This document shows, in pieces, positions 2,429-63,407 of a stretch of DNA of 64,000 bases. Both the position numbers and the translations under genes were made by a program. Source of the DNA: Eledone cirrhosa. Lineage: Eukaryota. The first letter of the stretch is position 1, and each line of letters begins with the position of its first letter. Under the pieces are notes generated by a model. It saw only the letters and a program-made list of their open reading frames with translations, was not told the DNA's origin and searched no databases. The stretch spans positions 63,984,001 to 64,048,000 of the forward strand of contig OZ024747.1 in the NCBI GenBank assembly GCA_964016885.1, given 5' to 3'.

Positions 2429-3020
2429 CTCAAAGGCAAACAACTAGGATTTTCAAATAATTTTAGAAGACAGTGATTTAGTAAATGAAACTAACATTGT
2501 CAGTTTTAAGCTAGTATTTGGAGCATAAATTAACAAAGATGCAGGACAATGTGAACTTCTTCACTGCTCAAATAGTTGAGTATTTAAAGGGTTTCAATAG
2601 CTTGGGTAAAAGTGTTTTCCTATAGCTTGAGTTGATCAATACTTTGTGTGTAGAATTTTGTAAATGGAAACTGCAAAATCCTGTCATATATATATAAAGA
2701 TGAGAGACAATTTTAAATGTACATCCTCTGTTTATTATATAATCCTGTTATACGTATTTTGAAGACATCAAAGTGATTACATAATAACCCTTTGAAGTGT
2801 TCTCAGACATTTTAAGGAATACAAATCATTGAGTACTTTACATCTGTTTACGACAAAAGTTGGATTATCTGATCAACCAACTTTCCTAAATTGAATATAT
2901 ATATAATTGTATCTATATATGAATGTATATGTATATATATATATATATATATATATATATATATATAAATATATCACATAAGAAACGGAGAATCAGTGGT
3001 GCGACGAATAAGATTTATTA

Positions 3021-3115
3021 GACATATTACAATCGTTTCTCTGGCGACCAGCACAAGGCACGATGGATGCAATGATCAAACCTGACTCTGAAATCACAAG
3101 ATCCTCAGATATGTC
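3021..3115 (-). ncRNA. Type I hammerhead ribozyme motif
   Basis: Minus strand reads gacatat-CTGAGGA-tct...aga-GAAA-cgattg-TA-atatgtc; 7-bp stem I, intact core, AATAAA follows. Confidence 0.75.
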
Positions 3116-3134
3116 TCGATTCTATGAGAATCAA

Positions 3135-3211
3135 GACATATCTGAGGATCTTGCGATCATTGCATTGATCGTGCCTCGAGCTGGTTGCCAGAGAAACACT
3201 TGTAATATGTC
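3135..3211 (+). ncRNA. Type I hammerhead ribozyme motif
   Basis: gacatat-CTGAGGA-tct...aga-GAAA-cacttg-TA-atatgtc followed by taataaa. Confidence 0.75.
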
Positions 3212-3504
3212 TAATAAATCTTATTCGTCGCACCACTGATTCCCCGTTTCTTATGTGATATTATACTTTGCTCTGTAAGAGCATCGAGTGCTCAAACAGC
3301 ATACTGCTTACGGAGGCTTTAAGCATCCCACACCAATTATATATATATATATATATACATAATTGTATCTATATATAAATGCTCAACCGTCATATGGAAG
3401 CATCTAAGCAAGCTTACCACAAATATATATATACATTATGAAGAGAGAAGAAACATTTAGATATAATTAGTAATAAAATGTATCATACCTAAACTGCTCC
3501 TAGA

Positions 3505-3596
3505 TTCCTCGACTACGTAGTTTCGTGGCATAAACAAAAACAATACATCATAAAGATATAGAGTCCTTGCGAGGTCTGCCGACTTATCAAGAGGAT
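3505..3596 (-). ncRNA. Degenerate hammerhead motif in a Penelope-pLTR-like fragment (about 3440-3790)
   Basis: Minus strand: tcctc-TTGATAA-gtcggca...tgccac-GAAAC-tacgta-GTC-gagga; palindromic loop III; TATA-like tataaata upstream near 3750; core mutated. Confidence 0.55.
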
Positions 3597-3882
3597 ACCT
3601 CATTTTACTAGTCTCAAGAACGCGTCTACACGACGTGAGAAAGAATCCCAAAAGGCGGAGGGGGAGATAGTCACGCGATATAACGGTCGAGAAACAGAGC
3701 TAAGCCTCTTATAACCCCGAAGAAAATACCACGGAGGCGGAGGGGGTATTTATATCGAAGCCGTAGAAGAGGTGGTGAAGGGGGCGAGATATATATATAA
3801 AAATGTGGGTATTAAATATTATCCAATTACAAGTATGAGAATAGCTCAATGTAAAATAAGTATATTACAGAGCTGAAATACT

Positions 3883-3967
3883 TTATAAATAATAATTAAA
3901 AAGTGTTTAAAACATTTAGTTATTTAATGATTTATATGTTTTAACCACTCTTTGATTATTATTTATA
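3883..3967. repeat. Short AT-rich imperfect inverted repeat
   Basis: tataaataataattaaaaagtgtttaaaacat versus atgttttaaccactctttgattattatttata. Confidence 0.6.
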
Positions 3968-59100: not shown

Positions 59101-60019
59101 CACAGAGTATTTGGCTCAACAGTGAAGTTCTCTTACAACCATAGGAGAAACCAATGGGAACCAGAAGTGCTCTAGTCTCTTAATAAAAACCTTTCTGAAA
59201 TTTACGAAGTCGTCAGGATTTGAATATATCAGTACGTCTAACCCATGCTAGCGTGGAAAAATGGACGTAAAATGGTGATGATGATGATGATGATGATGAT
59301 CACCAACATGTTATAGAAAGAAACAAAACCAAAGAAAAACAATCAACAGAAATAAATTCAATAAAAACAACAACGAAGTAACAATATTGATGTTATTTAT
59401 ATTATTATCATTAATATTATAGTGATTTCATATATAGGTATACAACCTCAGGCTTATTGGGAATTATGATAGGAAATGAGACGGCTGGGCATTAGAAATG
59501 AATTAAACAAACTGATGGGATTTTGAAACCTTGAGTCTGAAATTTATCTTGTAATATAGATTATAATTTAGACTATGGATCGCTGCATTTAAGCAGAGTT
59601 AATATCAGTCAGTGATAAAAGTATTGTGATATAGTCTGTTGTTTGATATCATTAATGTGTGAGAATAATAAGAGAGATAGAAGCTTACAGCCTTTAAGCA
59701 GAAACAAACACTGCTTATATAAATAATGTTTGTTCTCAGATATTTGCTATCTCAAGATATTTGTCTTATCAAGAAATGTCTAGAGTACAGACAAATATAA
59801 GAAGTTGGCATGTGATGTATATTGGTAATGGACTTCCTCACAAGAAATTACTTTTGTCAAACATATAAATGAATGTGCGTGAATTCATGTAGACTAAAAT
59901 GTATTACTATATATGTACACATATATACCAACTCATGTAGATATGCATAAATGGAGACAAACATGAATGCAAACTTACATGCATGCTTCCTATTTATTTA
60001 TGAAAGCACATATAAATAT

Positions 60020-60880
60020 CATATATACACATATATATTATAAATACATACACACACACATGTATATATATATATATATGTATATATATATGTAAATATA
60101 TAAATATATACACACATACATATATATATATATGTATATATATATGTAAATATATAAATATATATACATATATATGTATATATATATATATTATATATAC
60201 ATATATCTATATATATACATATATATTATATATACATATATCCATATGTATACATACATATATATATATATACACATATATATATATATACATATGCATA
60301 TATACATATATATACACATATATATATACATATATATATATATATATACATATATCCATATATATTATATGTATTATATATATATATATATATATATACA
60401 TATATACATATATACATACATATATAATAAATGTATTATATATATATATATATACATATATACATATATATATATATATACATATATACATATATATACA
60501 TATATACATATACATATATATACATATATATATATACATATATATATACATATATACATATACATACATGTATACATATATATATATATATATACATATA
60601 TACATATACCTATATATATATATACATATATACATATATATATATATACATATATAAATTTATATATATACATATATATATATACATATTATATATATAT
60701 ATATATATATACATATATACATATATATATACATATATACATATATATATACATATATACATATACATATATATACATATATATATATACATATATACAT
60801 ACATATATACATATATATATATACATACATGTATACATATATATATATATACATATATACATATATACATATATATATGT
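60020..60880. repeat. (TA)n/(CATA)n microsatellite; continues at 61140-61435
   Basis: Directly visible. Confidence 0.95.
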
Positions 60881-62337
60881 TAGGCTTCTACATAAACTGG
60901 AAACATTCTCCCAACTTGTAGAACACTTATAATGAAACAATTGTTTGGAAGGAGAGATATTTTAACTTTAATTATATCTCATAAAATAATACAACTGGCT
61001 TTCCACAAAATACATATAGTTAGCACCCCAAACACTTAAATTGGGTTATACTAACATATAACCTAATGTTTGTTGAGTGAGATTTACCAGTCGGAGTTTA
61101 GCGTTAAGCTATCTCTGTTATTGTATTAATAAATAAATAAATATATATATATATATATATATATATATATATATATATATATATATATATATATATATAT
61201 ATATATATATATATATACATATATATATATATACATACATATATATACATCCATATATGTATTATATATATATATCCATATACATATTATATATACATAT
61301 TATACATATATATACATATTATACATATGTATATATATATATATACATATTATACATATATATATATATATATATATATACATATTATGCATATATATAT
61401 ATATACACATGTATATATATATATATATATATACACGAGTGCTTATGCAATATGCCCTCATTTAAATATGGCTCATATTTAATTCGTTAGCATAATTTAT
61501 TATTTAGTTACAATGAGTTTGTTTGTTTTAAGAGCATTGATAGGAATATATGACTGCATGATCATTGTCTTCCCTTGAATGAGTCATGAAATGCACTTCA
61601 ATTGTGATTACATGTAATGATAAAACTATGTGACTGTAAATTATTTATTTTGGGGAAATACATTAACAAGCCACATCGTCAAAATAGTTTATTTAATTCT
61701 ACCACTTCATTGATATTGGCTTACATATCAATACCTTTCTCTGTAGAGTCAATCAGGTATAGAAATGATGTCTATTGTTTCCCCAAAATGAATGAAACAT
61801 GTTATATCACATATGTTCTCTTATTCGTAAGGCCATACTTACTTTTCCAGAAACTAGTGATGATGTTTAATGGTATTATATATATATATATATATATATA
61901 TATATATATATATATATATATATATATATATATATATATATATTATATATTATATATTTATATATATATATTTTTTCAATCACATATTTTTTTTATTTGT
62001 TTGACCCGAAATACTTGGTCGTTTCTATGGCTGTCCGGATGACGGTTTAACCATCGTATCAGTGTGTTTGGCCTTTAACGTATGTTGTAGCTCTGGTTCG
62101 TCAGAATTATTGAGCGCTTGCCACACATCTCGGAAGTTAGTTTTCGCTAATTCCAAAGCCGAAATACGATTCTCGCTAATTTATATATATATATATATAT
62201 ATATATATATATATATATATATATATATATATATATATATATATATATATATATATATATATATATATATATTCCTTGATGCAATTCAATTCAAGGTTTC
62301 TACATACTTTTTCTGTGTGTAGGAATGACGGTTAGAA

Positions 62338-62590
62338 GAAAATGCGAAGTACTTTCAGATGTTAAACTCCTTAACTGATAAGGCTGTGACACATTTCCAA
62401 GGATACAGTGGCAATGCAATTCCACATAACCAGTGCCATGATCTCATCAGACACCCTTGTTGTGTAAGAAGCTGTCTGATGACATCATAGCACTGATTAG
62501 ACGGAATTGCATGGCCACTGGCGTCATTGAAATATGTGACACAGCCATAACAATAAAGGACTTTAACATTTGAAACTACTTCACATTTTC
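62338..62590. mobile_element. Diverged palindromic element with two divergently oriented hammerheads
   Basis: Arms gaaaatgcgaagtactttcagatgttaaa / tttaacatttgaaactacttcacattttc; CTGATGA on both strands. Confidence 0.78.
62382..62456 (-). ncRNA. Hammerhead motif; mirror copy at 62471-62546 (+) has a mutated cleavage site
   Basis: Minus strand: gggtgt-CTGATGA-gatc...-GAAA-tgtg-TC-acagcc; stem II base is imperfect. Confidence 0.6.
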
Positions 62591-62920
62591 CTATTTTATA
62601 TATATGCATATTGAAGTAGATGCTCATATCTATATACATACATACATAGGTACATACATATGTGCATATGTGAGTATATATATGCGTATATATATGTGCG
62701 TATATATATGCGTATATATATGTGCATATGTGAGTATATATATGCGTATATATATATATATGCGTATATATATATATATATATATATATATATATATATA
62801 TATATATATATATATATATATATATATATATATGCGTATATATATATATATATATATATATATATATATATATATATGCGTATATATATATATATATATA
62901 TATATATATATATATATATA

Positions 62921-63103
62921 TAGCTTTCACCGTATTTTTGACTAAAGGAATTTTAGCTTGATAACGGGGTTTAGAACCCTCAGATAAATGGAAAAAGATG
63001 AGTATCGACGTACCGGCAATACTCATCTTTTTCCATTTATCTGAGGGTTCTAAACCCCGTTATCAAGCTAAAATTCCTTTAGTCAAAAATACGGTGAAAG
63101 CTA
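62921..63103. repeat. Perfect inverted repeat, 85-bp arms, 13-nt loop
   Basis: 62921-63005 is the exact reverse complement of 63019-63103. Confidence 0.95.
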
Positions 63104-63407
63104 TATATTTTCTAATTTCAAACTCGCTCACTGTTTCAAAACATACTTACTTGATATATATATATATATAGGCCTTATCATGGAGAAATATGTTGCAATC
63201 ATTGATAAAGAAATCAATACAAATTGTAAAGTCAAATATTTATCTTTTACAAACGTAGTCATTCACTTTAAAGTTTCGAAGGAATTCAGAATTTGCTTTA
63301 GTATATTACTTGGCAAAGAGTAAGACATTTCACTTAGATGAAATAGTTAAACTGATGGATAGAGGAAAGAACTGTGATATTACCACCGCCAAAATGTTGA
63401 TAACTCA

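Follow-up and report, generated by a model that had tools for sequence, protein, structure and literature searches.

Our results suggested that the hammerhead-bearing palindromes found in a 64,000-nucleotide stretch of the Eledone cirrhosa genome (GenBank assembly GCA_964016885.1, contig OZ024747.1, positions 63,984,001 to 64,048,000; hereafter the window) are probably short end pieces of Penelope-like elements (PLEs), joined head to head and newly formed with every insertion, not propagated as a unit. They are most likely a known kind of Penelope debris, and not a new, self-copying ribozyme family as the original prediction from this DNA had proposed. If so, the elements themselves are ordinary, and their useful part is the insertion mechanism that they record. 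Note that in genome annotation such stubs mimic microRNA precursors, miniature inverted-repeat transposable elements and ribozyme families.

The window has 32% GC and simple repeats occupy 12,101 of its 64,000 bases, a composition consistent with a microsatellite-rich animal genome. A built-in inverted-repeat finder was swamped by (TA)n. Self-BLAST after masking recovered elements A, B, D, E and F together with further inverted repeats (Table 1). The inverted repeats were real at all six places that had been pointed out (A to F): compared to 60 dinucleotide shuffles each, the z scores were 67 for A, 16 for C, 43 for D, 30 for E and 75 for F, while for B, where BLAST was used in place of shuffles, the self-BLAST E value was 0.0. 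One-sided tails, previously noted for some of the elements, were present in all six. The (TA)n setting held at both ends of A, D and F, but not for B, C and E: one flank of B and of C is (CT)n or (TAA)n, and the right end of E adjoins a piece of a long interspersed nuclear element (LINE) of RTE-like type. Since tail ends were set partly by the start of TA, this context was read directly from the flanks; a TA run lies within 8 nt at 3.9% of background positions. The claim that the elements share no similarity with one another was largely correct, except for C, which, like its solo relative at 45520, resembles the inside of the long stem II of A (z 5.3 and 4.0, respectively).

Element A is flanked by an 18-nt direct repeat (2903..2920, + strand, and 3359-3376), which is likely a target duplication later stretched by TA growth. 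Long TA runs have grown inside or beside this repeat, which suggests that some of the (TA)n at A expanded after the insertion and was not the original target. The start of the A tail (3262-3290) repeats about 20 nt of the family A 5' end upstream of the hammerhead, and the left extension of C opens with a motif shared with this tail start. The shared motif could reflect strand transfer between the ends or a protein-binding site; an alignment of eight tails revealed no invariant column at the arm-tail boundaries.

A descriptor scan of the window gave 12 hammerhead hits scoring at least 12, compared to 2.7 in shuffles, and 6 hits scoring at least 16, compared to 0.2 in 20 shuffles. Five of the hits at 12 or above were followed by AATAAA, and none in the shuffles. 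Both arms of A carry CUGAGGA, GAAA, UA and a 7-bp stem I, then AATAAA (type I), and this is the only element with two intact hammerheads. The arrangement that had been predicted for the arms, a hammerhead and then AATAAA, was intact at A, had altered cores at B, was damaged at D, and was not detected by the descriptor at C. In B, both arms have CUGAAAA (G8A) and AATAAA, with minimal hammerheads at 54880-54909 (- strand) and 55371-55400 (+ strand); G8A would break the C3-G8 pair, which is needed for hammerhead cleavage according to the text available of PMC11167929. In D, both arms have CUGAUGA (hammerheads at 62388-62450, - strand, and 62476-62540, + strand), the right arm has no U16.1, which breaks the cleavage triplet, and the left arm has no AATAAA. 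The scan gave no hammerhead at C, E or F, and in E and F the absence of a clean core had already been recognised. C is probably without the CUGANGA half of the core and, since it resembles the inside of stem II of A, this palindrome was probably truncated inside the ribozyme. The original prediction had missed an old back-to-back pair, G, with its centre inside stem I, CUGANGA kept in the left arm, and GAAA and a 5-bp stem I in the right. A type I hammerhead located close to the 3' terminus of the terminal repeat (pseudo-long terminal repeat, pLTR) is present in A, B and D by the descriptor and in G by eye, and not in C, E and F. Rfam did not match the right arm of A to a hammerhead; among the 150 matches listed of 434 for the window there was no hammerhead either, only microRNA-type hairpin noise. 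Tandem same-strand hammerheads were absent among the 12 descriptor hits.

Copies of element A, the only element surveyed in this way, were collected from four sequencing runs (X1, X4, X5 and X20) aligned to positions 2975-3480 at 80% likeness. Family A proved highly abundant, as 2,427 X1 contigs and 3,883 X20 reads aligned, some of them on a separate repeat at 3431-3468. Across the centre of A the depth fell from about 400 to about 5 in X20 and from 7,493 to 693 in X1, part of the low right-arm depth being due to a mapping preference for the left arm. At position 3124, 344 reads and 33 contigs departed from the reference, sharing about 18 further bases beyond which the runs differed (agreement of 0.66-0.78 over 30 letters). 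The centre of A is private to that copy, and the copies of family A would share a 5' end some 34 nt upstream of the core. The visible partner was an inverted tail piece that starts at 3260, 3272 or about 3293 and has no second hammerhead; thus, back-to-back hammerheads are only one outcome. The stem II of the A right arm is 18 nt shorter than that of the left. An X5 contig is gapless over 3021-3093, so the right-arm gap is a private deletion, and for the same reason we rejected the reading of the loose end at 3093 as a short-stem subfamily, with the A arms coming from two templates. Relative to the neighbouring repeat at 3431-3468, the enrichment of family A was 10-20 times higher in X4 than in the other three runs.

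A second family with the same layout, family M, was obtained from metagenomes. A pattern for two back-to-back cores retrieved 88 metagenome stretches, 34 of which belong to family M; both arms were recognised in 31, representing 26 distinct insertions, and the three loci with one recognised arm were left out. The layout, the variable centres, the one-sided tail, the target duplications, a 5' wall and the link to an open reading frame (ORF) are all directly seen in this family. Its 26 insertions show 22 distinct centres, 11-51 nt long. Of the 20 insertions with full flanks, 19 have the tail on exactly one side, and the exception is a 700-nt perfect mirror that is probably an assembly fault. The tail-less arm ends at a fixed boundary. 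Flanks share at least 10 nt in 16 of 18 cases (mean 13.9), compared to 1.6% of mismatched controls (mean 6.2); the target duplications of family M are about 14 bp. Both arms carry the same subfamily variants, none of them arm-specific, and the arms differ by 1.8 within a copy versus 5.1 between copies. That the centres differ in both A and M is the outcome which the original prediction itself had named as speaking against a propagating family. Rfam gave only weak, below-threshold Hammerhead_3 matches to the family M loci (28.9 of 48.5 bits), and the motif had no match in viral contigs. A tblastn search with the Penelope protein of the window found no Penelope ORF in the 88 metagenome loci, a weak test for ORFs of the Hydra type. 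Three further unrelated back-to-back hammerhead families occur in the metagenome contigs (L006, L046 and L086), L086 with a re-copied core at its centre.

When prokaryote genomes were scanned, the family M motif appeared in three repeat-rich stretches (L089-L091) of one assembled genome, a contig filed as bacterial that is evidently animal contamination. There, the motif ends an ORF with GIY-YIG-type sequence and a CxCX5C linker, the linker that defines the Hydra clade in the text seen of PMC8557442. Judged from these motifs, a Penelope element of the Hydra type, with an ORF, has the family M arm as its terminal repeat. Note that Pfam did not call the short GIY-YIG-type pieces, and that a related longer ORF scored 21.3 bits against a cut-off of 22.6. 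The contig also holds a nest of at least four Penelope-like ORFs with TA repeats; in L089 there is another palindrome, of 163 nt (3406-3567), and an internal inversion relative to L090.

Comparison with the long copies revealed a sharp 5' wall. All 53 family M mini-arms end within 13 nt upstream of CUGAUGA: the end lies exactly 12 nt from the core in 12 arms and 9 nt from it in 11. What fills the longer centres is not upstream sequence but pieces of the 5' end copied again. In the long copies, position 12 upstream of the core falls on the A of CCATT, and the first T of TATATAA precedes it by 26 nt. Since the wall lies at a TATA/initiator-like site, it is predicted from motifs to be the transcription start. 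Three of the four arms in the L089-L091 loci pass through the wall site. The L089 insertion joins a 600-nt tail-less arm, which holds the end of the ORF, to a short arm that bears the tail and begins 15 nt upstream of the core. As the tailed arm has no upstream part and the long arm no tail, neither could have templated the other by fold-back. Nine of the 11 arms that stop at 9 nt are preceded by a G (for example in L016, L048 and L050); this may be a copied cap, although several of the G's can come from the partner arm.

The window itself contains one Penelope ORF, in a 5'-truncated element whose layout, by the motifs given in the part consulted of PMC8557442, appears to be Neptune-type. The ORF (21853-23181, - strand, 443 codons) encodes the end of a Penelope reverse transcriptase (RT; thumb), then a CX4CXXC linker and a GIY-YIG domain, for which Pfam gave 28.7 bits against a cut-off of 22.6. 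On its 3' side come CCAAT, then TATAAA, located 75-84 nt ahead of a minimal hammerhead (21441-21469), and finally a tail and (TA)n. The B arms show this order too, CCAAT lying 124 nt and TATAAA 72 nt ahead of the core; since B shares this order with the ORF-bearing element, we take B to be a pair of ordinary pLTRs. The proposed link to PLEs was right in our reading. As a parent of A to G, this element was tried and rejected, with no similarity above z 4.

These observations fit a mechanism in which two priming events occur at one target. The RT/GIY-YIG protein would nick both strands of an AT-rich site about 14 bp apart, and two complementary DNAs (cDNAs) would be primed. Their start sites, different but close to each other, would lie immediately downstream of the hammerhead, leaving one arm with extra tail and the other without. 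Each cDNA would then stall early, as in B, E, F and C, or run off the 5' end of the RNA, and run-off a few bases upstream of the hammerhead would generate the mini-palindromes A, D, G and family M. Joining of the cDNA ends by microhomology or short re-copied bits would create a different centre each time. Because the tail also follows the upstream pLTR, priming there could yield a short cDNA running off at the transcription start; early stalls would account for C, E and F, and priming at the downstream pLTR for B and for the long arm of L089. Staggered nicks and joined cDNAs would together leave a head-to-head pair, one tail, a target duplication and a new centre, with the hammerheads as passengers from the pLTR. 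The two priming events, the wall as transcription start and the extension of family M behaviour to the window families are what this scheme infers; the 5' wall, the fresh junctions, the 14-bp duplication and the asymmetric L089 insertion favour it. In this respect, the earlier proposal of mobilisation by Penelope RT/GIY-YIG proteins was judged right, as was a probable bias to AT-rich microsatellites.

Published systems, each as described in the portion of the source available to us, agree with much of this. PLEs leave inverted truncated copies with one-sided 30-40-bp tails and a (TA)n bias (PMC8557442). In a rotifer, head-to-head pLTRs with palindromic junctions, solo pLTRs and mobilisation in trans are reported, the pLTRs having a TATA and an initiator and the target duplications being of 8-10 bp (PMC3846280). 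Inverted pLTRs also appear as a curation note (PMC8969392). Our elements share with such endonuclease-positive Penelope insertions the head-to-head arms, the palindromic junction, the one-sided tail, the AT-rich or (TA)n targets, the TATA and initiator of the pLTR, the hammerhead near its 3' end and, in family M and probably at A, a short target duplication. They differ in that most insertions here have no ORF and many arms stop at a sharp wall upstream of the hammerhead, in the tails (45-80 nt versus 30-40) and in the duplications (about 14 bp in family M versus 8-10 in the rotifer). The dual minimal hammerheads of Schistosoma mansoni are likewise opposite-strand pairs, 100-700 bp apart and ascribed to truncated PLEs (PMC4209133), whereas the family M cores are only 11-51 nt apart, and family A has a longer stem II (44-62 nt) and a stem I of 7 bp. 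The behaviour of PAc, a Poseidon element of Anolis, predicts the layout seen here: the purified protein, a predicted dimer, nicks and extends both strands of AT-rich DNA, reverse transcription starts at two internal sites that bound the tail, and the hammerhead is dispensable for insertion (PMC11167929). Those data are in vitro and from another clade, and the text we had of that paper does not describe complete palindromic products. Animal non-LTR (long terminal repeat) retrozymes are also short, ORF-less, PLE-related and with a type I hammerhead, but are described as tandem PLE derivatives, direct repeats that give circular RNA (10.64898/2026.07.22.740005), whereas here we have inverted pairs or single ends. 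The origin of inverted Penelope structures is stated as open in the part seen of PMC8557442, and in the open-access literature we did not find the argument for two priming events; paper supplements may list such stubs.

Several points weigh against this reading. No ORF-bearing parent of families A to G was found within the window, and the 3' end of its one Penelope ORF is unrelated to them. The best mechanistic evidence was obtained for family M, from a different animal, and would apply to the window by analogy, while the transcription start is a prediction from motifs. Among the seven window elements (A to G), only A showed a target duplication, although microsatellites hide such repeats. E and F have no hammerhead and are assigned by their layout. 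The family M pattern demanded two hammerheads within 30 nt and so selected short centres, although arms of 14-30 nt would still have passed it. Finally, one 17-nt centre recurs in 5 of the 26 family M insertions and, in X4, a junction of an arm with an inverted tail reaches a depth of 233, as a propagating unit would also give. These two recurrences, together with a layout common to several unrelated families, are what speaks for the original proposal of a self-propagating, ORF-less palindrome with two working ribozymes. Set against them are the differing centres in A and M, the lack of arm-specific variants in M, the cores broken in B, C, D and G and absent in E and F, and the folding predictions given below; the proposal is already largely refuted and we regard it as very improbable.

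The main rival for the second arm keeps the ordinary Penelope origin but derives the inverted arm from self-priming or fold-back of one cDNA, or from an antisense template, as has been proposed for the rotifer elements. Self-priming is put forward in the text available of PMC3846280, the shared subfamily variants within a family M insertion would follow from it, and the small re-copied bits at the centres suggest template jumps. Against this, the arms of L089 cannot be copies of each other, and the fixed boundary of the tail-less arm is what two start sites predict; we therefore hold fold-back to be unlikely, if worth keeping in view. Another explanation, rather unlikely in our judgement, takes as the unit a non-autonomous single arm plus tail (about 230 nt in family A), a hammerhead-led parasite with an internal promoter which Penelope proteins insert, often as an inverted pair, so that each palindrome would still be formed afresh, from a source RNA without an ORF. 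The great abundance of family A fits such a unit, as does the divergence of most loose ends after about 18 bases, which makes long upstream copies look rare; A also has intact cores and a long stem II, unlike minimal pLTR hammerheads, and the part seen of 10.64898/2026.07.22.740005 proposes animal retrozymes as PLE derivatives. Yet family M has an equally fixed 5' end although it is the pLTR of an element with an ORF, the mini-arms start downstream of the TATA box and so would lack it, and the tandem arrangement of retrozymes is missing. In its specific form, that family A is such an element of about 230 nt, present in thousands of copies, the idea seems to us somewhat more doubtful still. If true, family A copies would be transcribed outward from the centre, keeping cleaving ribozymes and seeding long hairpin RNA genome-wide, and the family would be the dispersed, inverted counterpart of the tandem retrozymes.

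Self-cleaving RNA from either strand, as originally envisaged, is unlikely in read-through RNA. The hammerheads are predicted to be locked in an arm-arm hairpin: for A, B and D, the first three stem I pairs had a probability of 0.000 in both full-length and nascent read-through RNA, whereas the right arm of A by itself gave 0.82-0.99 and the pLTR of the ORF-bearing element, as nascent RNA, 0.85. Predicted hairpin stabilities were -228 kcal/mol for A and -514 kcal/mol for B, so that, if transcribed, both could give long double-stranded RNA hairpins. Animal PLE hammerheads are described, in the texts we had, as cleaving poorly and needing dimers or protein (PMC4209133, PMC11167929).

Besides the palindromes, the window holds five non-palindromic Penelope-type ends, one of them on the RT/GIY-YIG ORF, so that about half of its Penelope-type ends are not palindromes (Table 1).

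Table 1. Penelope-type elements and related features of the window.
Feature	Position	Strand	Details and basis
A left arm	2971..3123	-	type I hammerhead 3028-3108, long 62-nt stem II region, then AATAAA; arms 82% alike
A right arm	3127..3261	+	type I hammerhead 3142-3204, then AATAAA
A one-sided tail, then (TA)n	3262..3337	+	arm alignment and reads
B, head-to-head pLTR pair	54742..55457	.	arms about 54823-55124/55156-55457 (about 300 nt), 94%; 31-nt spacer; tail 54742-54822, left side only; BLAST, arm alignment, hammerhead descriptor
C, old palindrome	55861..56169	.	arms 55971-56031/56118-56169, 75%; extension on left only
D, damaged back-to-back hammerheads	62272..62590	.	arms 62338-62453/62473-62590, 81%; tail on left only
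E, without hammerhead	17476..17691	.	arms 17534-17575/17650-17691, 42/42 match; 74-nt spacer; extension on left
F, young perfect palindrome, without hammerhead	62924..63155	.	arms 62916-63005/63019-63108, 90/90 match; 13-nt spacer; tail 63109-63155 on right
G, old back-to-back hammerhead pair	27896..28066	.	z 20 versus shuffles; core read by eye, missed by descriptor
5'-truncated Neptune-type Penelope element	21330..23181	-	ORF, 3' untranslated region and (TA)n
Decayed non-palindromic relative of B arm	35541..35636	-	BLAST, similarity z
Non-palindromic relative of C arm	45520..45628	-	BLAST, similarity z
Solo hammerhead-like motif resembling D, one core change	25352..25403	+	descriptor
Solo minimal hammerhead, core intact	31453..31480	+	descriptor

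Another palindrome (45046-45250, z 15), set between (CT)n and (CA)n runs, is extended on one side and has CUGAACA and GAAAC in each of its arms; it is possibly a further Penelope-type stub with a variant core. Weaker inverted repeats at 3883-3968 (z 10) and 37649-37763 (z 9) have no hammerhead motifs, and one more candidate (51349-51516) was discarded as chance (z 0.4). Decayed LINE-type RT fragments (RVT_1) occur at 8889-10660 and 17698-18506, the second adjoining E, and from their motifs we take both to be RTE-like. Finally, a long trinucleotide-based tandem array at 42212-44554, open in several frames and Thr/Pro- or Asn-rich, is probably a satellite.

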